Shown here piece after piece: positions 5,657 to 19,846 of a DNA stretch of 64,000 bases (the first letter of the stretch is position 1; every line of letters begins with the position of its first letter). The notes beneath the pieces were generated by a model, which made no database searches, was not told where the DNA came from, and saw only the letters and a program-made list of their open reading frames with translations. The translations under genes and the position numbers were made by a program. Source of the DNA: Thermoanaerobaculia bacterium (GTDB lineage Bacteria; Acidobacteriota; Thermoanaerobaculia; Multivoradales; UBA5704). The stretch is from the NCBI GenBank assembly GCA_044226625.1, contig JBGAGQ010000003.1:32001-96000 (forward strand), given 5' to 3'.

Positions 5657-5851
5657 GCGGATGGAAACCTCCTGGAGGGACGGGCGAAACGGAACGCCCG
5701 GTTCGAGAGGCCATAGGTTCTCATGGATCGAACCCGGCCGCCAACGCGAACGCCTGGCCCGAGCGCCCCCCGGATCGCGCAATCGTCGAGAAAGCCAACC
5801 CTGGTTTGCGTCTTTAAGAGAGACGACGCCCGACCGGGCCAAAAGGAGAGA

Positions 5852-5880
5852 TTGACAATGAGTCTACATGTAGCTACATT
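5852..5880 (+). promoter_or_regulatory. Sigma70-type promoter with overlapping palindromic operators for the TA operon
   Basis: TTGACA (5852-5857), 17 bp spacer, TACATT (5875-5880). Perfect palindromes CTACATGTAG (5864-5873) and ATGTAGCTACAT (5868-5879). ATG lies 7 nt after the -10, suggesting a leaderless mRNA. Confidence 0.75.
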
Positions 5881-5887
5881 GCCCGAC

Positions 5888-6196
5888 ATGAGAGACGTCG
5901 GGATCCGCGAATTGAAGGCGCAGCTGAGCCGCGTCGTGCGCGAAGTCGAGGACGGAGAGACCGTGATCGTCACCGATCGAGGGCGGCCGATTGCCGAGAT
6001 CCGGCCCGTGGACGTAGCCCCTCCGACCGAAGAGCATCCCGGCCTGCTGAAGATGGCGCGCGAAGGACGGCTCCTCCTCCCCCAGGTGCGCAACCATCCG
6101 GGCCTCTATTCGCCACCGCGCCGCCCCCTGGGACGTCCCCACCCGAGTATCCAGGAGCTGCTGGACGCCGGACGGCAGGACCGAGGGGAGGACTGA
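5888..6196 (+). CDS. Phd/YefM-family antitoxin
   Basis: MRDVGIRELKAQLSRVVREVEDGETVIVTDRGRPIAEIRP; directly upstream of a PIN toxin. Confidence 0.92.
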   Translation: MRDVGIRELKAQLSRVVREVEDGETVIVTDRGRPIAEIRPVDVAPPTEEHPGLLKMAREGRLLLPQVRNHPGLYSPPRRPLGRPHPSIQELLDAGRQDRGED

Positions 6197-6199
6197 TCG

Positions 6200-6643
6200 A
6201 TGGACGCGCCGACCCTCTACGCTGAATCGAGCGCGGTCTTGAGCTTGCTGCTCGGCGAACCGGGAAGCGACCGGGTGGCCGACGCGCTCGGCCAGGCGGG
6301 CCGCGTCGTCGTCTCCGAACTCACGCTGGCGGAGACCCATCGCACGCTGCTCCGCGCGCGGGCCGTGGGCAAGTTGACCGACGAAGAGCTGGAGCAAGTC
6401 CGCGGCGACCTCGAGCGCGCCGGACTCGGCTGGTCGCTCCAACGGCTCGACGCCGAAACCTACCTGCGCCTCCGCCGCCCCTTCCCCGCGGAGCCGGTTC
6501 GCACGCTGGACGCCCTCCACCTCGCCGGAGCGCTCGCCGCGCGGCGCGAAGTCCCCGAGATCCGCCTGCTCAGCCTCGACGTCCGTATCCGGGACAACGC
6601 ACGCGCGTTGGGTTTCGACGTCGAGCCGGAAGAAGGAATGTAA
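6200..6643 (+). CDS. vapC: VapC-family PIN-domain toxin
   Basis: LYAESSAVL, SELTLAE and RTLDALHLA acidic PIN motifs; 3 bp downstream of the antitoxin. Confidence 0.9.
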   Translation: MDAPTLYAESSAVLSLLLGEPGSDRVADALGQAGRVVVSELTLAETHRTLLRARAVGKLTDEELEQVRGDLERAGLGWSLQRLDAETYLRLRRPFPAEPVRTLDALHLAGALAARREVPEIRLLSLDVRIRDNARALGFDVEPEEGM

Positions 6644-7050: not shown

Positions 7051-7191
7051 GCGGCGTGAATCCATGATCGATCTCGCAAAGCCGCGAATCGGTCGCGCAT
7101 CACGCCCAGCGTCATCGAATCGACTCGGCCGACCGGCCATCGAGCCGATCCGGCTCGTATGACGAGATCTCGATCCTCGGCTCCGCGGAAC

Positions 7192-9048
7192 CTACCATCC
7201 TTCGAGCTTCCTCCGGATCAGCTGTTCGCCCTTGTTGGGATCGGTCGCTTGGGCGTGCGTGATGCCGTGGCTCGCGAGAATGCGCAGCGCATCGGCGCGG
7301 TCGGGGTGGGGCGCGTGCACCGGGCTCGAAGCGGCCTGATACAGGTTCCGCGCGTGGAGCGCGCGCTCCTCACCGAGCCTTTGGCCCGCCGGGGCGTTCT
7401 TCTTCTGAAAATGGCGGTAGAGCTTGTAAGCCCCGAGGCCGAGGGCGGCGAGCGCGCCGGCTCCGGCGAGACCCCAACCGATCGGGGTGAACAGCGCCCC
7501 GGCGCCGAGCAGGCCCGCGAGCAGGGCTCCTCCTCCCAACGCTCCGATTCCCGCGCCGATGCCGCCCAGGATGTTGCGCTTGCGGCGTTTGGCCAGCTGC
7601 CCGCTCATGTGATCCGCCGCGGCGGTCATGTTCGCGCTCATCGGCGGCCCCGCGCGGACGGCGTCGATCTGCGTCTTGTGCTGATGGGCGCGATAGGCCC
7701 GATAGCCGGCGCGCCCCGCGACGATCGTCTGGACGCCCGCGCCGATGCCGGCCGAGGCGAGGCCGGTGGCGGCCGGCAAGATCGAGGTTCCGGCGTGGCC
7801 GACGGCGCTGATCGCGTTGCCCGCCTGCATCCCTTGGCTCGCTGCGTCGGCCAGATTCACGGTCGCATCCACGGCGAGGCGCTTGGCCGTGCTCCGCGTC
7901 TCGGCCTGGGCTCCGGTCTCGTTGGGCTGAGGCGAGAACGTGTCGCGTATCCCCCGGCCGAAGCCCCTCACGCCCCCCTCCTGGCCCATGTTGCGGAGGC
8001 CCTGGTACGTGGCCAGGAGGTCCGCGCCCCCCGAGGCGATGTTGAGACCCGCTCCGGCCGGCCCGGTGACGCCGCTCGCGGCGCTGGTGTAACTCGTGGG
8101 CGCGACCGCGGCGGGAGGGGTGACCAGGGAGTTCACGGCGCCCAGGCCGCCGATCACCCCGGTCTGCGTTCCAGGGGAGTTGATCGCGAGGAAGTTCTCC
8201 GCCCGCGTGCCGAGGGAGGGGGGAGCGTACGGGGGAAGAGGAGGCAAGCCGGCAGGGGCGGCCCACGCGGCGGCGGGTGCTCCGGGTGGGCCGCCGCCAC
8301 CACCCCCGGGTCCCGCGGGAGCCAAAACCGCGCCGGCCGCAGCGGGAGCGGCGCCGCCGCCGCCCAGCGCCGGGGCGAGCATCGCGGGCGGAGCCGGCAA
8401 CGCGGCCGCCACAGCACCCGCGCCGGGTGCCCCCCCTCCACCGCCCAGCGCCGGAGCCAGCATCGGGAGCGGAGCCGGCAACGCAGCCGGCACGGCGCCC
8501 GCGCCGGGTGCGCCCCCTCCACCGCCCAGCGCCGGAGCCAGCATCGCGGGCGGAGCCGGCAACGCGGCCGCCACAGCACCCGCGCCGGGTGCGCCCCCTC
8601 CACCGCCCAGAGCCGGAGCGAGCATCGCGGGCGGAGCCGGCAACGCGGCCGCCACAGCGCCCGCGCCGGGTGCGCCACCTACACCGCCCAGCGCCGGAGC
8701 CAGCATCGGGGGCGGAGCCGGCAACGCGGCCGGCACAGCGCCCGCGCCAGGAGCGCCACCTCCACCGCCCAGGGCCGGAGCGAGTATCGCGGGCGGAGCC
8801 GCCGGGGCCGGGAGCGCGGCCGGCACGGCGCCCGGCAGTTGGTCCATGTCGTCGTCGTGAGGCCTCGGTTTGCGCTGAATCGGCGCCGCTCCGTGGACGG
8901 CCAGATTTTCGAACCGGTGCCCAAATCGCGTAGCAGCCTCCAGAGCGATCGAGACGGATCGCGGCGCCTCGGACGGCGATTCGGATCCGACGGCGCCCGA
9001 GCCCTCGGTGCGGGCGCTCTCCGCCGGCCGCTGGATCGAAGCTCGCAT
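7192..9048 (-). CDS. Putative effector A: GHRFENL/PIQR N-terminus, Ala/Pro/Gly repeat linker, Gly-rich hydrophobic C-terminal domain
   Basis: Start MRASIQRPA at 9048 chosen by alignment with paralog 21655-23475. The C-terminal ~330 aa are clearly homologous to that paralog; both end LIRRKLEGW. Confidence 0.75.
   Translation of the reverse strand: MRASIQRPAESARTEGSGAVGSESPSEAPRSVSIALEAATRFGHRFENLAVHGAAPIQRKPRPHDDDMDQLPGAVPAALPAPAAPPAILAPALGGGGGAPGAGAVPAALPAPPPMLAPALGGVGGAPGAGAVAAALPAPPAMLAPALGGGGGAPGAGAVAAALPAPPAMLAPALGGGGGAPGAGAVPAALPAPLPMLAPALGGGGGAPGAGAVAAALPAPPAMLAPALGGGGAAPAAAGAVLAPAGPGGGGGGPPGAPAAAWAAPAGLPPLPPYAPPSLGTRAENFLAINSPGTQTGVIGGLGAVNSLVTPPAAVAPTSYTSAASGVTGPAGAGLNIASGGADLLATYQGLRNMGQEGGVRGFGRGIRDTFSPQPNETGAQAETRSTAKRLAVDATVNLADAASQGMQAGNAISAVGHAGTSILPAATGLASAGIGAGVQTIVAGRAGYRAYRAHQHKTQIDAVRAGPPMSANMTAAADHMSGQLAKRRKRNILGGIGAGIGALGGGALLAGLLGAGALFTPIGWGLAGAGALAALGLGAYKLYRHFQKKNAPAGQRLGEERALHARNLYQAASSPVHAPHPDRADALRILASHGITHAQATDPNKGEQLIRRKLEGW
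8340..8835 (-). repeat. Intragenic tandem repeat, six ~81-bp (27-aa) units GAV(P/A)AALPAPPAMLAPALGGGGGAPGA
   Basis: Directly visible in the DNA and in the translation. Confidence 0.9.
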
Positions 9049-9080
9049 AGGGACGCGACCCGGGGTCGGAAAACCGGCGA

Positions 9081-9266
9081 TCAGAGCGCGCCGGTCCCGC
9101 TCTCCGGGCCCGCGGGCTCCACTCCCTCGAACGCGGCCCGCTCCGGAGATCGAAAGAGCCACGGCCCGTCGCTCGAATCCAGAAAATCGTCTACGGAGAG
9201 ATCTTCCGAGGATTCGGCCACGGGCTCGGATGCCAAGGGACGGTCGAGGGGCTGCTCCGAGTCCAT
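9081..9266 (-). CDS. Small acidic hypothetical protein (61 aa)
   Basis: Strong GGAGGAGG RBS before ATG 9266 (MDSEQPLDRP...); co-oriented with its neighbours. Confidence 0.55.
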   Translation of the reverse strand: MDSEQPLDRPLASEPVAESSEDLSVDDFLDSSDGPWLFRSPERAAFEGVEPAGPESGTGAL

Positions 9267-9407
9267 GGGACCTCCTCCCGCCGCAAGAGTTGTAGGCGAT
9301 GCTGAAGGCATCCTGACAGAGTCGCGACGCACCGACAAGCGCATTTCCTATTCAGGATCACGCCGCGGGCTCGGTGAGAGCCCGCGGGGGTTCCGCGGAA
9401 TCGAAGC

Positions 9408-9704
9408 TCAGCAACCGTAGCCGAAGCACTCCTTCGTGACCTGGATGCCGCCCACCGAGACCGAAACGCAAACTCCGGTGGGGAATCCCAGCGTGGTGCA
9501 AAGGTCGATGCAGGCTTGAGCCAGCGTGCCCGAGCCGGGAATCGGAACGGAGATGCATTCGTTCCCGACCACCGGGAGGTCGAGGCAGATCTGTCCGTTT
9601 TGCACCACGACGGACACGCACTCGGCGGGCGAGATCCCCGACGCCGCGAGGGCGTGGGCGGAGGCGGTCCGGTGGACCGGTGCGGAGAGTTGCGGGAGTT
9701 TCAT
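9408..9704 (-). CDS. Putative RiPP precursor 1 (cyanobactin-like leader, 8-Cys core)
   Basis: MKLPQLSAPVHR...LAASGISPA followed by a core with 8 Cys ending CFGYGC. AAAGGGGA RBS. Confidence 0.75.
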   Translation of the reverse strand: MKLPQLSAPVHRTASAHALAASGISPAECVSVVVQNGQICLDLPVVGNECISVPIPGSGTLAQACIDLCTTLGFPTGVCVSVSVGGIQVTKECFGYGC

Positions 9705-9788
9705 CGGGAAGTCCCCTTTCGTCTCGGCGCCCGATCCGCGGGACCCGGCGCCGTTTCATGTCGCTCCGGAAGCGGAGCGCACGTTGTT

Positions 9789-11300
9789 TCACTCCGGCGG
9801 CTCGCGACGCGGAGGTCCCGGATCGTGCCCGGGCGCGTACGGCCGCACGGGTAGGTCGAGACCCGCGTCGCCCTCGAGCTTCGTGCCGCAACCGCAGATG
9901 CCGAGCGGGCCCTGCTCGAAGGCGTCAAGCCGCAATCGGTCGGCGATGTTCTTTTCGTTGATCGCGGCGGTGAAAAAGGCGCCGAGGCCGAGCGCGGCGC
10001 AGCTCCAATAGAACGTCTGGCTGAGATGGCCGGCGTCGAGCAGCAAGACCCGATACGCCTTCTTGTGCACCTGGTATTTCCAAAAGTTCCGGTAGAAGCG
10101 CGCGGCCAGCACGACCAGGACGTGGGCGGTTTGGAAATACGACTGCCCGGCGGTGAATTCGTTCGCCAACGCTTCGGCCTCGGCGAGGGTCAAACGTTCG
10201 ATCCGCTCCAGGCCATGGACACGGACGTCGTAGTGGTAGAGGCCCGGCGGGAGGCCCTGGACTCGCAACACGAGGGGATACGCCTCGATTGGATGGAGCC
10301 CGCCGCCCGAAGGGCTGGTCTTCTGGAGTGCGACGACTCCGTCGGCGACCTCGGCCACGCCCCGGCAGCCGAAGACGTGGCGCAACAGCGAGGACAGATC
10401 GGCCAGCGACATCGCGCCGTCGCGGTCGAAGACGCGCGTGGTCTTGCGCTCCGCCGGCCATCGAGACGCGATCCTCTCGTCTTCGACGAGGGGCAGCGGG
10501 ACGGCCTCGGCTCCCAGGACCGAAAGGAAGGGCGCCGGAGGCTTGCCATAGCGAGCCACCACCCGGTTGAGCCCCTCGCCTCCGTTCAAATAGGCGTCCC
10601 AACGGTCCGCGTCACCTTCCTGCAGCCCGACGTCGCCCCACACGCTCATGAAGTGATAGAGGGCGGCGTACGGCTCCCACCTCGACGCGGCGATCTCCTC
10701 GTCTCGCCTTCTCGCCGACGCGGCCTCCGGGACGTCGCTCGCGAGCAGGAGGCCTTTCTCGATCAGATGGTCGATCACCTCTTCGTCGAACCGCTCTTTC
10801 AGCCGGTCGACCTCGATCCAGCGCGTCGAGGGGACGCCCGCCAGGATCTCCAGCTCGGCCTCGCTGATCAGATGCTCGGTTTGAGCGAGGAGGTCGGCGG
10901 CCACGAGCTCGTTGCCGCGGAAGATCGAGATCTCGCCGCGCAACAGCTCGTCGACGCCGAGCGAGTAGCGGTCCCGCAGCCAGAGAAAACAGAGGTGATG
11001 CCGCTTGACCGTCTTTCGGAGTCCCGCGGAATTTCCTTTCGAATCGGGCGCGTCGCCGTTCGGCCGACGCTCGGCCGACGTCACCGCGGCGGCGTCCCGA
11101 GCGCCGAAGCCGAATCGGTGGAGACAGTCCGATTTCTCCGGCAGCCGCACCCGCGCGGGTAGCCGTTCCGGATCGAGCGCGACGTCGAGCCTCTCGAGAA
11201 GGGTCCGTGGATTCCCCTCGAGCTCCGCCCGGAACGCGTCGTCCGTGGCGAGCCGGTAGGCAAGATCCGAGGTGAGCTCCAAACGGGTTCGGCTCGGCAT
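9789..11300 (-). CDS. SagB/nitroreductase-type peptide maturation dehydrogenase with fused N-terminal NHLP-like leader domain
   Basis: RKTTRVF, KTSPSGGGLHPIEAY, GLYHY, FYRNFWKY, LDAGHLSQT, LGAFFTAAINE. The N-terminus LAYRLATDDAFRAELEGNPRTLL...LPEK resembles NHLP-related leaders. Confidence 0.85.
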   Translation of the reverse strand: MPSRTRLELTSDLAYRLATDDAFRAELEGNPRTLLERLDVALDPERLPARVRLPEKSDCLHRFGFGARDAAAVTSAERRPNGDAPDSKGNSAGLRKTVKRHHLCFLWLRDRYSLGVDELLRGEISIFRGNELVAADLLAQTEHLISEAELEILAGVPSTRWIEVDRLKERFDEEVIDHLIEKGLLLASDVPEAASARRRDEEIAASRWEPYAALYHFMSVWGDVGLQEGDADRWDAYLNGGEGLNRVVARYGKPPAPFLSVLGAEAVPLPLVEDERIASRWPAERKTTRVFDRDGAMSLADLSSLLRHVFGCRGVAEVADGVVALQKTSPSGGGLHPIEAYPLVLRVQGLPPGLYHYDVRVHGLERIERLTLAEAEALANEFTAGQSYFQTAHVLVVLAARFYRNFWKYQVHKKAYRVLLLDAGHLSQTFYWSCAALGLGAFFTAAINEKNIADRLRLDAFEQGPLGICGCGTKLEGDAGLDLPVRPYAPGHDPGPPRREPPE

Positions 11301-11303
11301 GGA

Positions 11304-13031
11304 TCAATCCTCCGGCGACCGGTTCGCCAGGATTCGAGCGAGCGGCTCGAGCTGGGTTTCGTAGCGGCGCCAGCGCCCGATCTCGTCCGTGTGCATGGCC
11401 GGGAACGCATCGCCCGCGGCGGCTTCGCGGCGGGCCTCCGCATCCGCCAGTCCGCAGAAGCTCTCGACTCGCGTCATCACCTCGCGCGGGTTCTCGACCA
11501 GCTCTTCGTAGCGAACCTCCATCACGGGCGTGGGGAGCACCTCCTGCCAATGGCGCATCAAACGGCAATAGGAGAGGAAATAGCGCCCCAGCTCTTCGAG
11601 ATCGAAGCTGAACGTCTGTCCCCGCGCGAAGTTGGTGCAGTAGCAGGCGAGGCACGCGTCCATGGTCCCCCGAACGCAATGGAGGATCGCGGCCCGGGGC
11701 AGGATGAGTTGGATCAAACCGAGGTGGAGGAAATTGCCCGGCAAGGTGTCCGTGAACCGTGCCGCGGGCCCCGCGATCGCCGTCGCCTGGGCGACGTACT
11801 CCTGGCCCAGCTCGCGCGCCTGGCGCCGGGTCATCCGTGCGACGCCATCCGGATAGGTCGCACCGAGGCGCGTTGGAAAAGCGGCGGCGATCTCGGGCAC
11901 GAAGTCCGGCTCGCCGCCCGCGTGGAGCGCAGGATGCCGCCGGAGCATGCGCTCCACGAGCGTCTTGCCGGTCCGGGGCATGCCGACGATGAAGATCGGG
12001 ACCGCCGACGAAAATCCGAAGTCGGAGCGCTCGGCAAACAAACTCCGGGGGAAGGCGGCGATCAGGCGGTCGTGAGCTTCCTCTTCTCGCGCGGCGTCGA
12101 ACGAGATCGACGACCTTCGGAGACGGTTGCCTTCCGCGAACGCTTCGAAAGCCGCCGCGTGATCTCCCAGATCGGCGTACGCCTTGCCCAGGGCGAACGA
12201 CAAGGCCGGCCGCTCTTCGGCCGCCTCAGGCATCCGATCGCGCAGGCGGACGAGCTCGGCGAGCGCCGGATCGCCGGGCTCGAACGTCTTCGCCAAGGCG
12301 AGGTTGTAACGCGCCTCCACGTAGCTCGGGGCCAGCTCGAGGGCTCGGGCGTAACTGGCCACGGCCCCGTCGACCTCGCCTTGCAGCTGTAAGGCGTTGC
12401 CGAGGTTGTTGTGCGCCTGAGCCAGCTTCGGATCGAGCGCCAGCGCCTGCCGGTAGCAGGCGATCGCCTCGGCCGTCCGGCCCCTCTCCATGAGCGCGAT
12501 GCCGAGATTGTTGCGCGCCGGCGCCGAGCTCGGCGCCAATTCGAGGGCCCGCCGAAAACTCTCTTCCGCATCCCGCGTCCGCCCCAGCCGGAGCAAGGCG
12601 CTCCCCTGTCCGTTGTGGGGCGCGCCGAGATCGGGCCGGAGCTCCGCCGCGCGACCGTACGCGGCGACCGCGCGATGGGGGTCGCCGATCGCCAGGCCGT
12701 GGTTCCCCAGGCAGAGGTGCGCCTCGAACGAGTCGGGATCGATCCGCAAGGCGGTCTCGTAGCACGCCAGGGCTTCATCGAACCGTCCTCGCGCCTCGAG
12801 GACCTTCCCCAGGTTGAGGTGGCCGAAGAGGAAATCGGGACGGATCGAAAGTAACTTGCGATAGAGACGTTCCGCCTCGTCGAGCCGGCCGGAATGGTGG
12901 TGGCGAATGGCTTCTTCGAACGTTCGCTTCGGGTCGGCGGCGCTCTCGAGCCCGTCCGCCGGCTCGATCCGCGACTCGGCCGAAAATTCATCCACGAATT
13001 CGCGTTGGGCTTCGCTCTGGACGGCGATCAT
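11304..13031 (-). CDS. TPR-repeat sulfotransferase-family protein 2
   Basis: Start MIAVQS at 13031 (ATGA overlap with the upstream stop). TPRs (AHNNLGNAL), IFIVGMPRTGKTLVE, VRYEELVENP. Confidence 0.88.
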   Translation of the reverse strand: MIAVQSEAQREFVDEFSAESRIEPADGLESAADPKRTFEEAIRHHHSGRLDEAERLYRKLLSIRPDFLFGHLNLGKVLEARGRFDEALACYETALRIDPDSFEAHLCLGNHGLAIGDPHRAVAAYGRAAELRPDLGAPHNGQGSALLRLGRTRDAEESFRRALELAPSSAPARNNLGIALMERGRTAEAIACYRQALALDPKLAQAHNNLGNALQLQGEVDGAVASYARALELAPSYVEARYNLALAKTFEPGDPALAELVRLRDRMPEAAEERPALSFALGKAYADLGDHAAAFEAFAEGNRLRRSSISFDAAREEEAHDRLIAAFPRSLFAERSDFGFSSAVPIFIVGMPRTGKTLVERMLRRHPALHAGGEPDFVPEIAAAFPTRLGATYPDGVARMTRRQARELGQEYVAQATAIAGPAARFTDTLPGNFLHLGLIQLILPRAAILHCVRGTMDACLACYCTNFARGQTFSFDLEELGRYFLSYCRLMRHWQEVLPTPVMEVRYEELVENPREVMTRVESFCGLADAEARREAAAGDAFPAMHTDEIGRWRRYETQLEPLARILANRSPED

Positions 13032-15145
13032 CGGGTCTCCCGCCCGAGCGCTCGCTTCAACGGCTCGAGGTGGGCCTCGTAACGGCGCCAACGCCCGACC
13101 GATCTCTCGTAGATCGGCTGGCGCACCTGAAGGTTGCTCGCGGTGCGGACCGGACGCTCGGTTCGGTGGAACGCGACGCATCGGTCGTCCCACGGCAGGC
13201 CGCAGAACGCGAGCAGCTTGCGGGTGATCTCCTCCTGGTTCGAGACCAGGTCCTCGTAGCGGACGTCGAGCGTCGGCGCCGGCAGTGCGCGCCGCCAGTG
13301 CGCCATCAGCCTCTCGTAGCTCCGGTGGTAGCTCCCCAACTCTTCGAGGTCGTAGGTGAACGGTTGGTTGTCGCCGGAAAACAGGATCGAGTAACAGGAC
13401 AGGCAGGTATCCAACGGATCCCGGAGGCAGTGGACGATGCGCGCCCCGGGCAGGGCGAGAGCGATCAGGCCCAGGTGGATGAAGTTCTCGGGCAGCTTGT
13501 TCGTGACGCGCCGGGCCGCGCCGTCGCGGGCGCGCAGCGTCTCGACATAGCGGCGTCCGGCGGCCGCCAGGGCGCGTTGCGGCGGAAGGCGCGGACCGTC
13601 GAGGTATCCCTCGTCGCGCCGTAGATCGGCGGCGATCCGACCGAGCGTGGGAAGCTCGCCCGCGCCATGGACCCCCGGGTGGCTGGCGAGGATCTGCTCG
13701 ACCAGGGTGGTTCCGGATCGCGGCATCCCCACGATGAAGATCGGCAGGTCCGACGGCTCTCCCCCGCCGAACCGCTCGGCCATCGCGGTGCGGCTCAAAT
13801 TCCTTTCGATTCGCAGCAGCGATTGCCGCCAGCGCCGAGCGCTGTAGTCGAGCCGCGCGCGCTTTCGCCGATTGCCGTCCGCCCAGAGGCCGAACGCCTC
13901 GTCCTCGCGGCCGGCCGCGTCGTATACCTTGCCGAGGGCGAACGAGAGGTACATCCGATCTTCGGACGAGGCGCGCTCGTGCCGCAGCAGCTCTTCCATC
14001 TTGGCGACCCGCGCGTCGCCGGGCGCCAAGCGCTGCACGTTGGCGAGATGGAAATAGGCCTTGGCGTTGCCGGGCGAGAGCTCGAGCGCCCGGCTCGCGC
14101 TCGCTTCCGCTTCGCGGAACCGGCCGAGGGCCGCCAAGGCAGTGCTCGCGTTCGCGTGCGGCTCGGGATAGTCCGGCCGCAGCCGGAGAGCCCGGCGAAA
14201 GCAGGCGAGCGCCTCGTCCACGCGGTCGAGCTCCAGCAGGGCGCAGCCGAGATTGTTGTGTCCTTCGGCGAGCCCGGGCTCCAAGCGCAACGCTTCCCGG
14301 TAGGAGGCGATGGCTTCGTCGAGTCGCTCCCGGTCCGCCAGCGCGGTCCCGAGGTTGTGGTGCGTCCGCCCGTCGTCGGGCCGGATGACGAGAGCCGCGT
14401 GGAAGCGCTCGATCGCCTCGTCGATTCGGCCCAGCTTGAGGAGCGCGCTGCCCAGATTGTCGAGCGCGTCGGCAGGGTGCGGGCTCCGCCTTGCGGCGTG
14501 TTCGAAATGGTGGACCGCGCGCTCCGTCGATCCCATCTCCAGAAGCAGGCAGCCGAGGTCGTAGTGCGCGGGCGCCGACTCGGGATCGATGCGGAGAGCG
14601 CGCTCGAACGCCCCGAGCGCCTCGTCGCGACGCCCCAGCGCTTGGCATGCCAACCCGAGGTTCACGTGCGCGGGCACGAAATCCGGCCGGATCGCCAACG
14701 CCCGCCGATAGCAGTCGACGGCGGCGGCGATCTCGCCGGAGCTCTTGAGGGCGTTGCCCAGGTTGAGATGCGCCTCCACGTACTCGGCGTCCCGCTCGAG
14801 AGCGCACCGGTAGCTTCGAATGGCCTCCGTGCGCCGGCCCGCGCTCTCGTAGGCCTTGCCGAGGTTGTAACGGAGGAGGGGCGCCTGAGGCCGAGACGAA
14901 ACCGCCTTTTCGAACAGCACCGTGGCCTCGCCGGAGTTGCCCCGCTGGGCGAGGAGCAGCCCCAGATACTGGAGCGCGTCCGCGTCGTCGGGACGCTCTC
15001 GCAAGACCCTGCGGTAGATCGCCTCGGCGTCCTCATGGCGTCCGGCCTTGTGAAGCTCGACGCCGGCCTCGATGGGGTCGTCGATTGGCGGTCGCGGCGC
15101 CAACGGCACGGCGGGCTCCCGAGGGATGTCTGTGGGGTCGATCAT
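13028..15145 (-). CDS. TPR-repeat sulfotransferase-family protein 1
   Basis: About 10 TPRs, 5'-PSB loop IFIVGMPRSGTTLVEQIL, RDPLDTCLS, VRYEDLV, VRTASNLQVRQPIY. Confidence 0.92.
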   Translation of the reverse strand: MIDPTDIPREPAVPLAPRPPIDDPIEAGVELHKAGRHEDAEAIYRRVLRERPDDADALQYLGLLLAQRGNSGEATVLFEKAVSSRPQAPLLRYNLGKAYESAGRRTEAIRSYRCALERDAEYVEAHLNLGNALKSSGEIAAAVDCYRRALAIRPDFVPAHVNLGLACQALGRRDEALGAFERALRIDPESAPAHYDLGCLLLEMGSTERAVHHFEHAARRSPHPADALDNLGSALLKLGRIDEAIERFHAALVIRPDDGRTHHNLGTALADRERLDEAIASYREALRLEPGLAEGHNNLGCALLELDRVDEALACFRRALRLRPDYPEPHANASTALAALGRFREAEASASRALELSPGNAKAYFHLANVQRLAPGDARVAKMEELLRHERASSEDRMYLSFALGKVYDAAGREDEAFGLWADGNRRKRARLDYSARRWRQSLLRIERNLSRTAMAERFGGGEPSDLPIFIVGMPRSGTTLVEQILASHPGVHGAGELPTLGRIAADLRRDEGYLDGPRLPPQRALAAAGRRYVETLRARDGAARRVTNKLPENFIHLGLIALALPGARIVHCLRDPLDTCLSCYSILFSGDNQPFTYDLEELGSYHRSYERLMAHWRRALPAPTLDVRYEDLVSNQEEITRKLLAFCGLPWDDRCVAFHRTERPVRTASNLQVRQPIYERSVGRWRRYEAHLEPLKRALGRETR

Positions 15146-15226: not shown

Positions 15227-15421
15227 CTAGTTGCAGGCGGGCCAGCCGAACGGGCAGGTGCAGGTCGAGCCGTCGTTGCAGCAGGTCGACAGGAAGGCGC
15301 AGCTGCACTTGGTCTGACCGCTCGAACAGGCCTGCGGCTCGATGCCGGTCCGGTTCTCGCCCTCGCGAACGGCGGCGAAACGGTTGCGGTGGACGGGTTC
15401 GGACTGAAGCGGGGTGTTCAT
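15227..15421 (-). CDS. Putative RiPP precursor 2 (cyanobactin-like leader, 8-Cys Ser/Thr-rich core)
   Basis: AAAGGAG RBS. MNTPLQSEPVHR...TGIEPQ followed by ACSSGQTKCSCAFLSTCCNDGSTCTCPFGWPACN. Directly downstream of the PatA-like protease. Confidence 0.8.
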   Translation of the reverse strand: MNTPLQSEPVHRNRFAAVREGENRTGIEPQACSSGQTKCSCAFLSTCCNDGSTCTCPFGWPACN

Positions 15422-15537
15422 ATCGAACTCCTTTGGATGTGTGCCCCGTCACGGGACGGCGGCACGGGGTTGCGATCGACGACGGGTGGAACGACGGCGG
15501 TTCGAAAGCAGTTATGCGGTTCTGCGACGGTGGGCGA

Positions 15538-17604
15538 TCAGTAGACGTCCCAATGCCGGACGGCGCCCACGGTGACCGGGATCACTTCGCTCACGTCGAC
15601 CGTGAATCGATAGACGTGGCGCGCCTGCTCCAGGCGCTTGGCCGGGTTGAAGAAGATCAGCTTGACGTCCCAGCAATCGGAGCCGGGGCGGCAGATCGGG
15701 CTCCGTTCGACGCCGATCCGGTCGAGCTTCAAACCGCCGTGCACCGCGTCTCGGTAGATGAACTCGAGTTGGAAGGCGTTCGTCGCGGCGAAGTTCATCG
15801 ACCTCTCCTGCGGCGTCAGGCCCAGGTTGCGGACCTCGTAATAGACCCGCTCGAGGAAGTTCTGAATCCCTTCCGACTTCCGCGCGTGCGCCGCCGCCGA
15901 ATCCTTTTCTTTCGGGACCTCTCCGGCGGCCGCCTTGACCAGCGCGGGCGTATGCCAGCTGTAGAGGCCGCGCACGTCGGGATAGAGCACGGGCACGATC
16001 TGTCCGTTGAGCAGACGCTTCGTGCCTCGAACGACGCCGGGCACGGACACGCGCTCGGCGCCTTCGGTCAGCTGCTCTCGCAGCGCGCGCCGCAGCCGCT
16101 CGTAGGTCGTGGCGGCGAACGGGCCGTTCGGCGCCACCGCATAGACGACCGTGGCATCGAGGCTGAGCGTCCAGGTGAGGCTCGCCGCCGCGGATGGGTC
16201 TTCGTCCAGATACGCCAGCAGCTCCCGCGGATCGTTCACGTTGCGATGGGTGAGCTGGATGAACTGGTCCCGCCTGGATTCCGTGCCGAAGTCGTACCCG
16301 AGCTGCCCCAGCACGTACGCCAGCACCGGGCTCGCGGATCCTCCGGATCCTCCCGCGCTGCCCGAGCCGCCGCAGCCGCAATCGGAGGCTTCGATGCCGC
16401 TCGCCGCGATGCCGGCCCCGCTTTCCGCTTCGACCTCGAATCCGAGCTCGGGGAGGTCCGCGAGCGCTTCGGCGGCGATCACGGCGTTCGCGATTCCTTG
16501 GGGATCCTCGACGCTCGACGCCTCGATCGCGGTCGATCCGCCACTCTCAACTTGCGCTTGGCTTGACATGTGTCCTTCCCTTTCCGTGGGTTGGTGGTTG
16601 ATATGAATGGCCATGGCCGTTCCGGTCTTTTGCGGCACCGGCAAGATGTCGATCGTGGGAGGAAGGTCGTGGGCATCGCTCCATGCCTCCCGCGCGGCGG
16701 CGAGGACTCCGAGCCCGGCGGTCAGGTGCCGGTAGGCCGCGGCGAGATCGAGCCGGCCGGCGAGCAGCCGCCGGCATTCCGTACCGCTCGAGACGTCGCA
16801 GGGCTCGGCGCCGCCGAGGAGCGCGGCGCGTACCCGGCGCGCGTCGGGCCTCTCGCCGCGGGCGAGCTGGAGGCTCATCAAGAGCGCCGCGAGGCCCGAG
16901 ACCACGGGCGTGGCGAAGCTGGTCCCCGTCTTCCTTGCGACTCCGCCCCCGGGTAACGCGCCGAGGATCTCCTCCCCGGGCGCGAGAATTCCTTGCTCGA
17001 GGTAGGCCTCGCCCCAGTTGCTGAACTCCAAGGGAGTCCCGGCCGCGGTCATCGCGCCGACCGCGAGCACCGACGGCACGGCGGCCGGAACGTGAACGCA
17101 GGCGCAGCCGTCGTTGCCCGCCGCGGCGACGATCAGGACGCCGTTCTCCCAACACCGCTCGATCGCCTGCGCCAGCAAAGGCTCGGCCTCGGCGCCCGGC
17201 GCGAGCTCGCCGCCGCTCACGTTGATCACGTGCGCGCCGTGGATCACGGCGAGGTTGATCGCCCGCGCGAGGTCGAGCTGCGAACAGGACAAAACGTTGC
17301 CTGGCCGCGGTGAATAGATGGGCACGATCAAACCGCGGCAGCCCGGCGCGATGCCCGGCACCGGGCTGCCGTGCCGGCCGAAGATCACGCTCGCGACATG
17401 GGTGCCGTGCCTCGACGCCGTATCGTCGCCCGCGGTGCCCGCGGTGCCCGAGGCCACGGTCTCGACCCGCGTGAGCCTCTCTTCCGAAAAGCAGGGATGG
17501 GAAAGATCGACCGGTCCGTCGAGAACGGCCACGCAGACCCGCGGATCTCCCATGGTCTCCGACCAGAGCGACTTCAACCGCGGCACCGCGACGTCGATGG
17601 CCAT
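15538..17604 (-). CDS. PatA/PatG-family cyanobactin maturation S8 protease with C-terminal PatG domains
   Basis: Catalytic triad VAVLDGPVD, HGTHVAS, GTSFATP; oxyanion AAAGNDG; CSQLDLARAI. C-terminal NFLERVYYEVRNLG...ERSMNFAATNAFQ...SPICRPGSDCWDVKLIFFNP...YRFTVDVSEVIPVTVG. GGAAGGAG before ATG 17604. Confidence 0.92.
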   Translation of the reverse strand: MAIDVAVPRLKSLWSETMGDPRVCVAVLDGPVDLSHPCFSEERLTRVETVASGTAGTAGDDTASRHGTHVASVIFGRHGSPVPGIAPGCRGLIVPIYSPRPGNVLSCSQLDLARAINLAVIHGAHVINVSGGELAPGAEAEPLLAQAIERCWENGVLIVAAAGNDGCACVHVPAAVPSVLAVGAMTAAGTPLEFSNWGEAYLEQGILAPGEEILGALPGGGVARKTGTSFATPVVSGLAALLMSLQLARGERPDARRVRAALLGGAEPCDVSSGTECRRLLAGRLDLAAAYRHLTAGLGVLAAAREAWSDAHDLPPTIDILPVPQKTGTAMAIHINHQPTEREGHMSSQAQVESGGSTAIEASSVEDPQGIANAVIAAEALADLPELGFEVEAESGAGIAASGIEASDCGCGGSGSAGGSGGSASPVLAYVLGQLGYDFGTESRRDQFIQLTHRNVNDPRELLAYLDEDPSAAASLTWTLSLDATVVYAVAPNGPFAATTYERLRRALREQLTEGAERVSVPGVVRGTKRLLNGQIVPVLYPDVRGLYSWHTPALVKAAAGEVPKEKDSAAAHARKSEGIQNFLERVYYEVRNLGLTPQERSMNFAATNAFQLEFIYRDAVHGGLKLDRIGVERSPICRPGSDCWDVKLIFFNPAKRLEQARHVYRFTVDVSEVIPVTVGAVRHWDVY

Positions 17605-17722
17605 TCGTCTCTCCTTCCAGGGTTCGGCCGGGCGACCGGCCGAACTTGCGTTTGTCTTCACTGAAAGGAAAGGTTAATGATCGATCGGCGGGCTGAAAAT
17701 CGGGGCCCTCTCTGATCTTCGG

Positions 17723-18445
17723 CTAGGGGAAAACCCGATCGTTCCCCTCCGGACGGGGCGGCTGCCGCTCCGTTTCGACCCACAACGTGGCGTGGCGTGC
17801 CAGGTCCGCGACGGAAGAGAGGTCGAGCTTGGACTTCAGATGCTCCAGATGGGTCTCGACCGTCTTGATGCTCAGATGGAGTTGTTGCGCGATGCGCCGC
17901 GTTCCGTGGCCCTCGCCCAGCAGACGGAAGACCTGCAACTGGCGGTCGCTGAGTTGCGCGAGGGGCGAGCCGGGCTCTCGAGGGTTTCCGCCGACGAACT
18001 GGCGGGCCAGTCGATTCGCCAGGGTGTCGCTCATGTAGACGTCGCCGCCGAGCACGTGGCGGATCGCGACCATCACCCGGTCGCAAAGCTGTTGTTTGGA
18101 AACGAAGCCCCGCGCGCCAGCCCGCAGCGAGCGCTCGCCGTAGATCGTCTCGGAATGCATCGAAAGCACGAGGACCGGAATCTTGGGATGACGCGCCGCC
18201 ATGGCTTTCACCAGCTCCAGACCGTCGTCGCCCCCTTCGAGCGCCAGGTCGACGATCAACAGGTCGGGCTTCTGCCGCTTGACGGCTTCGAGCGCGGCCT
18301 GGACTCCCCCGGCCTGGCCGGACACCATGAGGTCGGGCTCGTCGTCGATCAACGCGATCAAGCCGCGCCGCAAGAGCGGATGGTCTTCGACGACGAGGAT
18401 GGTCTTTCGTTCCTGAGCCAATCGTTCGGGTCGCTTCGCGGGCAT
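17723..18445 (-). CDS. NarL/LuxR-family response regulator
   Basis: Receiver domain ILVVEDH...PDLLIVDL...LSMH; HTH LSDRQLQVFRLLGEG...IAQQLHLSIKTVETH. Confidence 0.92.
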   Translation of the reverse strand: MPAKRPERLAQERKTILVVEDHPLLRRGLIALIDDEPDLMVSGQAGGVQAALEAVKRQKPDLLIVDLALEGGDDGLELVKAMAARHPKIPVLVLSMHSETIYGERSLRAGARGFVSKQQLCDRVMVAIRHVLGGDVYMSDTLANRLARQFVGGNPREPGSPLAQLSDRQLQVFRLLGEGHGTRRIAQQLHLSIKTVETHLEHLKSKLDLSSVADLARHATLWVETERQPPRPEGNDRVFP

Positions 18446-18727
18446 GGCGTCGATCCTCGGAGTAGCGGCCGGCGACGGAACATCGCAGGGGGCTGGGGGT
18501 CCGCGGCGCGAAGGCCCCGTTCTTCGGATGCGCCTCCTTCGCGCGGCCCATCCAAGAAAAGTATGGTTTCGTGGTCGGCCCGGACCATCCGGGAGCTCCC
18601 CGGTTGTGGCATCGGGGAAACCCCCAAGGTGCCGCGGGCGTGCTCCGCACAACGCGCGAGCGTGGAGGCGCGGGATCGACCGAACGTGGAGATCGAGGGG
18701 ACCGCGAAGATCGCGGAACGGAAGGAC

Positions 18728-19846
18728 CTACGGCTGGCGCTCGGGAGCGTCGGGCCTCTTGAGAGCCGGCCGATCTTCGGAGGGATCGGACGTCAGCGGA
18801 AACTTGCAGATGACCGTCCAGCCGCTGCGCGCCGCGCCCGCCGCTCGCAACCGCCCTCCGATGAGGCGCGCCCTACGGTCCATGTTGCGGAGGCCCGTTC
18901 CCGACGGCGCAGGCGACGGCGCTCCCGACCCGTCATCGCGCACGCGGAGGAGGCCGACCTGTCGCAACCGGCGGAGCGCGATCTCGACCCGATTCGCCCG
19001 GCCATGCCGCACGGCGTTGTGCACGGCTTCCTGCGCGATCCGAAACAGGTGGGTCTCGACCGCCGGGTCGATCCGTGGCCAGGCGTGATCGCATCGGAGG
19101 GCGCAGTGGACGCAATATCGCGACCGGACGTTTCCCGCCAACGTCTCCAGCGCGGCCGCGAGGCCGACCTGAGCCACCCCCGCGGGATCGAGGCCCCGCG
19201 CGAGATCGCGGGCGTGGCCGACGCTATCGTTCAGCAGCTGGGAGATCTCGGCGGCCTCCCCCGCCGCCCGATGCGTGTCGTTCGAAAGCTGTCTCGCGAG
19301 CCGAGCGCTCAAGGCCGCGAGACCGGCGAGGTACTGGCAGAGTCCGTCGTGGAGATCTCGACCGACGCGCTCCTGCTCTCGGTCCGTGGTTTCGAGGATC
19401 TCGTTCTCCAACCGCCTCTGATCGGTCACGTCTCGTGCCGAGGCATAGACGAGGCGGGTCTCGCTCCCGCGCCTCGCGTTCCACTGCAGCCAGCGGTACC
19501 GACCGTCCTTGCCTTGACAACGGTTTTCGAACGTCACCGTTCGGAAGGACCGCGCGAGCTTCTTCAACTTCGCTCCGGAGAGCTGGCGGTCCGCCGGGTG
19601 AACCAGATCGAAGAGGGGCCGGGCCAGGAGCTCTTCGCGGGACCAACCCAGGACCTCTTCCCAGGCCGGGTTCAGGCAGCGGAAGCTCCCATCCATTCCG
19701 AAAGCGCAAAGCAGATCGGGCGATAGGTCGAAGAACGGAGACGAGACCGCTTCCTCCCAGCGCCATGGCGGTTCGGAAGGAGCTCGGGGCGGTCCGAGCC
19801 GACGATCGACGCCGGCGTCCCTACGACTTGTCTTGCCCGCGCGCAT
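18728..19846 (-). CDS. PAS-domain sensor histidine kinase (HisKA_3 type), cytoplasmic
   Basis: PAS (NPAWEEVLGWS...VHPAD), H-box ERVGRDLHDGLCQ, FRIAQEAVHNAVRHG, VRDDGSG, GTGLRNM. Confidence 0.9.
   Translation of the reverse strand: MRAGKTSRRDAGVDRRLGPPRAPSEPPWRWEEAVSSPFFDLSPDLLCAFGMDGSFRCLNPAWEEVLGWSREELLARPLFDLVHPADRQLSGAKLKKLARSFRTVTFENRCQGKDGRYRWLQWNARRGSETRLVYASARDVTDQRRLENEILETTDREQERVGRDLHDGLCQYLAGLAALSARLARQLSNDTHRAAGEAAEISQLLNDSVGHARDLARGLDPAGVAQVGLAAALETLAGNVRSRYCVHCALRCDHAWPRIDPAVETHLFRIAQEAVHNAVRHGRANRVEIALRRLRQVGLLRVRDDGSGAPSPAPSGTGLRNMDRRARLIGGRLRAAGAARSGWTVICKFPLTSDPSEDRPALKRPDAPERQP

Follow-up and report, generated by a model that had tools for sequence, protein, structure and literature searches.

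Sequence evidence for a natural, single-origin fusion of an NHLP-type leader to a TIGR04511 dehydrogenase

Analysis of a 64,000-nucleotide stretch of contig JBGAGQ010000003.1 from a Thermoanaerobaculia bacterium (the window, with positions counted from its first letter) revealed an uninterrupted frame of 503 residues on the minus strand, at 9789..11300, in which an N-terminal domain resembling the leader of NHLP-related precursors of RiPPs (peptides made by the ribosome and then modified post-translationally) is joined to a complete peptide dehydrogenase of the family TIGR04511. As judged by profile searches, a tree of the enzyme part and comparisons of identity, this fusion is real, natural, rare, maintained and old, and these data show a core-less leader of NHLP type joined to a complete TIGR04511 enzyme in a fusion of single origin. 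In the literature outside subscription journals, we found engineered leader fusions and borosin/burpitide precursor fusions only, with no report of a natural leader-enzyme fusion and no experimental paper on the TIGR04509/TIGR04511 cassette. The cassette, uncharacterised as it is, and the leader-enzyme fusion as a concept were thus known already, and the natural fused form appears to be new.

The fused gene and its relatives

In an NCBIfam scan, residues 98-474 matched TIGR04511 ("putative peptide maturation dehydrogenase") at 330.4 bits vs. a cutoff of 240, over model positions 1-369 of 380, and residues 299-472 matched the SagB domain TIGR03605 at 126.7 bits vs. a cutoff of 78.4. This agrees with the call of a TIGR04511/SagB-type dehydrogenase in a preliminary description of this DNA, whose family names, TIGR04509 and TIGR04511, were also correct. 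Pfam recognized the nitroreductase domain PF00881 alone (54.9 bits). Of the two domains which that description proposed to check with HMMER, the enzyme passed its cutoff but the leader did not, with TIGR04509 ('NHLP-related RiPP peptide') covering residues 11-57 at 21.6 bits (E 1.7e-4), under its cutoff of 34. The ATG start codon at 11300 lies 3 nt past the stop of the upstream sulfotransferase gene, and 7 nt ahead of it is a GGAGGA hexamer (11308-11313, minus strand) that is Shine-Dalgarno-like by consensus match only.

Four metagenomic homologs (P0002-P0005), encoded on Logan contigs of 2.1-9.2 kb, aligned with the fused protein through its N-terminus at 44-50% identity and 96-97% coverage; the other 115 matches listed were stand-alone enzymes, mostly of ~400 residues, covering at most 83% of the query. 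A profile search of 1.84 billion cluster representatives, with the best 150 considered, placed four fused proteins on top (816-830 bits, starting at profile position 9 or earlier), followed by a next score of 482 bits, and the best-scoring stretch of the remaining 146 began at position 94 or later. The leader domain was present in 5 of the 261 proteins retrieved, 259 of which belong to the dehydrogenase family. Carried by 4 of the 150 best representatives and 5 of the 259 family proteins, the leader is a natural addition, as had been proposed, and not the ordinary N-terminus of this family. No close homolog turned up among 400 sampled genomes of this phylum, the unpublished G024 included (best E 1.2e-39, nitroreductase part only), and the one genus-mate in the sample was without a match. 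A word-indexed search of a 5.8-billion-sequence database with residues 1-100 returned only the query itself, which is too short to inform on rarity. One of the homologs, P0002, is extended in frame beyond the start of the leader by an AraC-type helix-turn-helix region (residues ~15-123); this is a fusion of three parts or else a gene call drawn too long.

In a quick IQ-TREE analysis of the enzyme part (72 rows), the five fused proteins fell on one side of a branch with an SH-aLRT support of 95, and their terminal branches measured 0.39-0.92 changes per site. The tree and the underlying alignment were made without the stand-alone peptides; a joint MAFFT alignment scattered these peptides over the enzyme columns. 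For the five fused proteins, mean pairwise identity was highest in the nitroreductase domain (57%), followed by the clamp-like domain (43%), the leader (41%) and the helical region (37%), with the linker at 18%; the leader domain has 15 invariant residues, D20, D21, R24, L53, P54 and G64 being among them. We surmise that the leader is under selection, because its identity matches that of the enzyme's own N-terminal domains while that of the linker is far lower.

A stop or frameshift in the linker was not found in contigs of two runs, one of them from another study. This check was made on Logan contigs rather than raw reads, and no single piece covers the whole gene: 1) run X1 contributed pieces spanning 9700-10824 and 10890-11400; 2) a contig of run X2, a second run of the same sample, showed 0 differences over 10939-11111; 3) a contig of run X3, from another study, carried 8 substitutions and 0 gaps over 10946-11155, with two amino-acid changes and no stop.

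Recognizing that the TIGR04509 score is sub-threshold, we built a leader hidden Markov model (HMM) from the five fused N-termini and searched it, at a domain independent E-value (i-E) of 1e-3 or less, against the six-frame open reading frames (ORFs) of 80 related loci, these being the best 80 of a genome-contig scan, taken from species-representative genomes and reaching up to 8 kb on either side. A separate small ORF matched in 44 of the 80 loci, lying directly upstream in the same orientation in 32, downstream in 4 and on the opposite strand in 8; the best matches to upstream peptides reached a domain i-E of 5e-16, and in none of the 80 loci did leader and enzyme share an ORF. All 17 stand-alone peptides tested matched TIGR04509 at E of 0.01 or less and 7 of them were above its cutoff; the other fused homologs scored 23.6, 19.5 and 26.4 bits, with one giving no match, all below 34. 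We consider the N-terminal domain to be a clear homolog of NHLP-clan leaders despite its own low score, since the intermediate profile finds stand-alone precursors of which 7 of 17 exceed the TIGR04509 cutoff. The NHLP-like leader claimed in the preliminary description was thereby confirmed, though by way of the separate precursors instead of TIGR04509 alone, and so was its statement that leader and enzyme are usually encoded by separate adjacent genes. No separate TIGR04509 peptide was found in the source genome, where the sole TIGR04509-like match is the N-terminus of the fused protein.

Comparison with the stand-alone peptides also indicates what the fused form lacks. The small ORFs consist of the conserved leader followed by a mainly hydrophobic or aromatic C-terminal stretch, in some cases devoid of Cys, Ser or Thr. 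The fused proteins retain the leader as far as a hydrophobic-x4-hydrophobic motif and a G-x-G, after which linkers with abundant Pro, Ala, Ser, Gly and charged residues replace the hydrophobic core. Relative to the TIGR04509/04510/04511 cassette, the protein described here is thus alike in being a full TIGR04511 member, in having a leader homologous to the cassette precursors and in the absence of a nearby YcaO; it differs in that leader and enzyme form one polypeptide with the hydrophobic core missing, in that no cyclase/STAND/TPR partner exceeds its cutoff in the genome, and in having a protease, sulfotransferases and Cys-rich peptides as neighbours.

Among the stand-alone cassettes, some contain two to four tandem, near-identical precursor genes (L071 9487-11087; L006 7193-7963). 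In six Solirubrobacterales loci (L012, L036, L054, L062, L066 and L070), the leader-like match lies near the end of stop-to-stop frames of 378-435 residues, directly upstream of the dehydrogenase match, and in L054, L062 and L066 the peptide terminates in a repeated GTLGT-type motif. A SARP-plus-cyclase-like partner was seen in L036 and L054, the two of these six loci whose flanking ORF was scanned; such partners also adjoin L008, L011 and L018.

Predicted fold, docking and chemistry

An AlphaFold2 model made with 72 sequences had a mean predicted local distance difference test score (pLDDT) of 87.2 and a predicted TM-score (pTM) of 0.83. Residues 1-65 were confidently modelled (block means pLDDT 77-96) as a short strand (6-8) and helices at 11-19, 21-29, 31-37 and 56-62, the first three a bundle and the last bearing the hydrophobic-x4-hydrophobic motif; the linker was predicted to be disordered (pLDDT below 50 at 68-92); and everything past it was well ordered, the clamp-like domain comprising strands within 97-145 and helices within 147-182. 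The most diverged fused homolog, P0005, displayed the same layout, with an N-terminal domain at pLDDT 89-96 and a disordered linker. NHLP/proteusin leaders are described as a bundle of three helices followed by a Pro-rich segment and, just ahead of the leader/core boundary, a helix with an LXXXXL motif (PMC10858898), and in a Nif11 leader the bundle and the L(X)4L motif are described as touching the RiPP recognition element (RRE) of the enzyme (bioRxiv 10.64898/2026.10.04.756588). The fold predicted for our N-terminal domain matches the published layout of NHLP leaders, and likewise that of the Nif11 leader. The proteusin/NHLP and Nif11 leaders (MprE7, MppE) resemble it in being long folded helical bundles, each with a flexible stretch behind it that carries an L-x4-L type motif contacting enzyme or RRE; they differ in belonging to free, core-bearing precursors, while the leader here is core-less and part of the enzyme.

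The closest solved structure to the model is the cyanobactin oxidase ThcOx (Foldseek E 5e-18; 8pz5_A, VIA Z 26.1, rmsd 3.0, 330 aligned), and nitroreductase structures in general matched at Z 18-26. In the superposition, model residues 78-476 fall on residues 99-469 of the chain, so that the clamp-like domain falls on the second clamp region of ThcOx and the leader-like domain occupies the sequence position of the first. In ThcOx, residues 87-194 are described as forming this second 'peptide-clamp' domain, the binding site of which is buried by the first clamp domain (PMC5108345). ThcOx and the PatG oxidase domain (PDB 5lq4, 8pz5) share with the fused protein the clamp-like and FMN (flavin mononucleotide) nitroreductase domains, the WKY motif and a pathway with PatA/G proteases. 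In contrast, ThcOx has its first clamp domain where the fused protein has a helical leader-like domain, acts after a YcaO heterocyclase that is absent here, and is only ~23% identical.

With respect to docking, we predicted the complex of the leader (1-67) with the enzyme (93-503), each with its own alignment. The score was 0.60 (runs 0.62, 0.60 and 0.60) vs. 0.00 for the best of 3 controls, which is graded as weak support; the runs agreed in at least 96% of contacts and partner pLDDT was 82 or higher. Of 80 solved complexes, 58 reach the mark used, as do 2 of 110 mismatched pairs; these counts are approximate in the present case of own alignments. The intramolecular docking proposed in the preliminary description therefore passed over the controls, but weakly, with a score in the range of the mismatched pairs that pass. 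This result is weakly suggestive of binding of the leader to the enzyme itself.

As to the chemistry, W407-K408-Y409 is invariant in the 72 family sequences and aligns with the WKY of ThcOx; a Lys-Tyr motif is described as important for catalysis in the dehydrogenases of thiazole/oxazole-modified microcins (TOMMs) (bioRxiv 10.1101/2023.09.25.559410). A SagB-like, FMN-dependent two-electron oxidation using a Lys-Tyr base is likely, since this TOMM-type motif is retained. The absence of a cyclodehydratase emphasized in the preliminary description was confirmed in that the 64-kb window contains no YcaO, but this is not special to the fused gene. With the genome's own YcaO as single tblastn query, a search of limited reach, the best E-value in the 80 family loci was 0.99, and the lack of a YcaO seems to be typical of the whole TIGR04511 family because none was found in these loci. 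The sole YcaO of the genome resides on another contig (locus L104, G000:C5:17001-34000). Its neighbours there are a TfuA-related protein (181.5 bits), a pair of small ORFs of 79 and 88 residues, a Ser/Thr kinase-TPR protein and a protein resembling a TOMM kinase/cyclase that stays below its cutoff at 611 bits. Models of the thioamidation type give this YcaO its highest scores, and its SagD score is under the cutoff; L104 is a probable thioamide-type peptide cluster. Given that the family works without a YcaO, its chemistry is probably not azoline oxidation. The cyclodipeptide oxidase AlbAB was among the structural matches (Z 14.8), and nitroreductase-fold enzymes performing peptide alpha,beta-dehydrogenation are on record (bioRxiv 10.1101/2023.09.25.559410); for the present family we view alpha,beta-dehydrogenation as a lead only.

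The canonical cassette also comprises a large partner, TIGR04510 ('putative peptide modification system cyclase'). Of 59 candidate large ORFs next to stand-alone dehydrogenase genes, 44 were scanned; 34 of these encode cyclase/STAND/TPR proteins, 6 of them TIGR04510 over cutoff, 2 TIGR04510 below cutoff and 26 TIGR03903-like below cutoff. In the source genome no protein exceeds the TIGR04510 cutoff, the best reaching 41.3 bits vs. 400 in its TPR part only. Record titles place the cassette widely in soil Actinomycetota, Acidobacteriota and Gammaproteobacteria, with Caballeronia calidae LMG 29321, Dokdonella soli JCM 15421, Oleiagrimonas soli and Duganella radicis among its cultured carriers.

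What the retained leader may do

The operon consists of six tightly packed genes of one orientation, which overlap or are separated by 3 to ~120 nt, and the fused dehydrogenase is number five (Table 1). In the ancestral state a small NHLP-clan precursor gene, encoding a folded leader and a hydrophobic core, stood immediately upstream of a gene for a TIGR04511 FMN dehydrogenase, and in one lineage the two genes merged once, with the core apparently lost and a disordered tether of ~30 residues in its place. The retained leader would most likely reside on the enzyme's own RRE/peptide-clamp-like domain, at the site of the free leader, either in cis or across a dimer, and once bound would keep the enzyme in a leader-bound, active state. 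No longer needing a leader on its substrate, the enzyme would tailor peptides without an NHLP leader, with the two Cys-rich peptides of the operon, part of a module with the PatA/G-type protease, as the most likely substrates in view of gene order only. The probable reaction would be an FMN-dependent two-electron oxidation with the conserved Lys-Tyr base rather than azoline oxidation. Taken as a whole, this path from cassette merger to a leader-bound active enzyme, and on to a leader-independent tailoring oxidase with non-azoline chemistry acting on the peptides of the operon, is the account we favour, at slightly short of an even chance.

We infer leader-independence because engineered leader-enzyme fusions behave in this manner: leader-LctM ('LctCE') and HalCE2 are constitutively active on leaderless cores (PMC5141572, PMC13003496). 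What the fused dehydrogenase has in common with these constructs is a leader attached covalently to the enzyme N-terminus through a flexible linker. The constructs are man-made lanthipeptide synthetases or cyclodehydratases with short unstructured leaders; in contrast, the present fusion is natural, conserved in a small clade and built from a folded NHLP-type leader and a nitroreductase-fold oxidase. A leader-fused LynD heterocyclase is reportedly another engineered example. The protein may even be the natural counterpart of this synthetic design, with the leader kept, the core discarded and the enzyme permanently activated and recruited to PatA/G-processed, possibly sulfated Cys-rich peptides for a non-azoline FMN oxidation, a broader proposal that we find rather doubtful. 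What chiefly hinders the combination of RiPP enzymes from different pathways is their dependence on leaders, and chemists bypass it by fusing leaders to enzymes; if our account is true, a long-conserved natural fusion would imply that evolution uses the same solution, and the protein would be a ready-made leader-independent oxidase. It could further serve as a single-polypeptide system for studying how long folded leaders engage a clamp/RRE domain, and could open a way into the chemistry that the TIGR04509/TIGR04511 cassette performs.

Several points weigh against the account we favour: 1) the protease-peptide module stands without a nearby dehydrogenase in relatives; 2) complex-prediction scores of 0.60 or less occur in only 7 of the 80 solved complexes, and in both of the mismatched pairs that pass; 3) the docking prediction gave no contact list and hence no site; 4) the high pLDDT of the leader may reflect only its own fold, the AlphaFold2 output being without inter-domain error; 5) an in-frame GTG at residue 73, which has no sequence resembling a ribosome-binding site, might also yield unfused enzyme; and 6) one X3 contig of low depth (2.6x) has a 2-nt (GC) insertion behind 10815, in the clamp-like domain, that may be an error of sequencing or assembly or a broken, frameshifted strain variant.

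Instead of activating the enzyme, the leader might act as a handle recruiting leader-binding or TPR partners, here the TPR-sulfotransferases and canonically the cyclase/STAND/TPR proteins, or as an autoinhibitory or regulatory pseudo-substrate. In keeping with a handle, cyclase/STAND/TPR proteins account for the bulk of the ORFs flanking stand-alone dehydrogenases (34 of 44), two TPR proteins are encoded directly upstream of the fused gene and are translationally coupled, and the TPR parts of these sulfotransferases match TIGR04510 weakly (E 2.7e-13 and 2.2e-10). However, matches of TPR to TPR are unspecific, with the same proteins matching dozens of TPR families, and the weak docking pass was obtained with the enzyme itself; we deem such a role unlikely, if still worth considering.

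We have less confidence in a self-modifying enzyme-precursor fusion, in which the linker would be the core, oxidised by the attached enzyme and then excised, e.g. by the PatA/G-type protease. The linker does sit exactly at the core position, after the hydrophobic-x4-hydrophobic motif and G-x-G, its low conservation resembles that of RiPP cores, which are typically hypervariable, and a protease is encoded within the operon. Borosin and burpitide systems, in which the core is fused, C-terminal and modified autocatalytically, offer a precedent. Borosins (OphMA-type) and burpitides resemble the present protein in being natural fusions of RiPP precursor elements to a modifying enzyme, but here it is the leader that is kept and the core that is apparently lost. 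Linkers that abound in Pro, Ala, Ser, Gly and charged residues and are predicted to be disordered do not resemble the cores of the stand-alone peptides, which are hydrophobic or aromatic. Some stand-alone enzymes, P0009 for one, have N-terminal tails of comparably low complexity, and two cleavages would be required for a peptide that is internal, unlike that of borosins. Self-modification is, in our estimation, distinctly improbable.

More improbable still would be an ordinary azoline oxidase acting on the Cys-rich peptides together with a YcaO encoded elsewhere (in trans). Cys, Ser and Thr abound in peptides A and B, the fold is nearest to that of an azoline oxidase (ThcOx), the operon includes a PatA/G-type protease, the enzyme retains the Lys-Tyr motif, and a genome 97.9% complete leaves room for a missed YcaO; but the only YcaO known in it is on the other contig, in a TfuA-related context, with its best scores from thioamidation-type models and a SagD score below cutoff, and none was found in the 80 family loci by the single-query tblastn. 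Compared with the cyanobactin pathway, the cluster has the PatA/PatG-family protease but no YcaO that could be a PatD-type heterocyclase, and neither peptide A nor peptide B matches an NCBIfam or Pfam family as a PatE-type precursor might.

A fossil or artefact, i.e. accidental read-through or an assembly error leaving a decaying N-terminal remnant, is the least probable reading and is largely refuted by comparison with homologs: in many relatives the precursor gene adjoins or overlaps the enzyme gene, one small mutation could fuse them, and the 6.6-Mb source genome is a metagenome-type assembly of 133 contigs, yet five proteins at 44-50% identity retain the frame, the leader has its invariant residues and is conserved as well as the enzyme's N-terminal domains, and the contig of another study carries substitutions without gaps.

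The operon and its surroundings

Table 1. Coordinates of the fused gene, its parts and the neighbouring genes in the window
Feature	Position	Strand	Basis
Whole fused gene (leader domain, linker, TIGR04511 dehydrogenase; gene 5)	9789..11300	-	Open frame; TIGR04511; 4 full-length homologs
NHLP-clan leader-like domain, residues 1-66	11103..11300	-	Sub-cutoff TIGR04509; profile matches to stand-alone precursors; AlphaFold2
Disordered polar linker, residues 67-97, at the position of the putative ancestral core peptide	11010..11102	-	Low pLDDT; 18% identity
RRE/'peptide-clamp'-like domain, residues 98-190, start of TIGR04511 model	10731..11009	-	AlphaFold2; ThcOx alignment
Helical connecting region, residues 191-262	10515..10730	-	AlphaFold2 helices 191-251
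FMN nitroreductase/SagB-type dehydrogenase domain, residues 263-476, with W407-K408-Y409	9873..10514	-	PF00881; TIGR03605; structures
PatA/PatG-family subtilisin-like protease with PatG_D and PatG_C, no oxidase domain (gene 1)	15538..17661	-	TIGR03895 678.2 bits, cutoff 421; PF00082, PF18047, PF18065
Cys-rich 64-residue peptide A, PVHR-type (gene 2)	15227..15421	-	ORF; AAAGGAG upstream
TPR and sulfotransferase protein 1 (gene 3)	13028..15145	-	PF13469 172.2 bits and TPR families
TPR and sulfotransferase protein 2 (gene 4)	11304..13031	-	PF13469 129.5 bits and TPR families
Cys-rich 98-residue peptide B, PVHR-type (gene 6), 85 nt downstream of the dehydrogenase	9408..9704	-	GC at third codon positions (GC3) 0.83; AAAGGGGA upstream
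LuxR-type response regulator and PAS histidine kinase, located upstream of the operon, with uncertain starts	17723..19846	-	Pfam

The two Cys-rich peptides have no NCBIfam or Pfam family match and no NHLP leader, and no other peptide in the genome carries their N-terminal motif. Peptide B has one other homolog in the databases, P0261, at 52% identity. Homologs of the protease were found in 4 of 200 other genomes of the class; in two of these, G465 and G493, the protease gene is followed by a gene for a similar Cys-rich peptide, that of G465 being clearly homologous to peptide B. Within 16-20 kb around each of these four protease loci, there was no homolog of the dehydrogenase or of the sulfotransferases. 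We surmise that protease and peptide constitute a module of their own, with the sulfotransferases and the fused dehydrogenase as additions in the source genome, because neither is near the module in relatives. The PVHR-type peptides are, as the preliminary description had it, foreign to the dehydrogenase, being in a PatA/G-protease module that is dehydrogenase-free in the two relatives with a readable peptide gene. The combination of this protease with a Cys-rich peptide bearing an 'M..P(I/L)Q..P..R'-like N-terminal motif recurs at window positions 15227-17661, in L115 (7917-10134) and in L116 (10140-12308), with no heterocyclase nearby.

The two sulfotransferase genes are tandem paralogs with catalytic parts 42-44% identical, the start of the second overlapping the stop of the first (ATGA), and they encode the only such catalytic domains of the genome (tblastn, E of 1e-10 or less). 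A link of the sulfotransferases to the dehydrogenase family was considered and rejected, homologs of their catalytic domains being absent from the 80 family loci as well as the 4 protease loci.

Three further features of the window were noted beyond the operon. An 81-bp unit is repeated 5.5 times (91% matches) at 8360-8801, within long overlapping ORFs on both strands (7159-9420), the minus-strand product of which would be an Ala/Pro/Gly-rich protein of 656 residues with a hydrophobic stretch and no Pfam match (GC3 0.81 vs. 0.76 between the strands). On the plus strand at 5723-6643, a Phd/YefM-type antitoxin and a PIN-domain (VapC-like) toxin are encoded between the cluster and a pyruvate dehydrogenase E1 gene. 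Finally, an ORF of 581 residues at 25140-26885 encodes a VTT (DedA-like) membrane domain together with weak matches to ATP-grasp.

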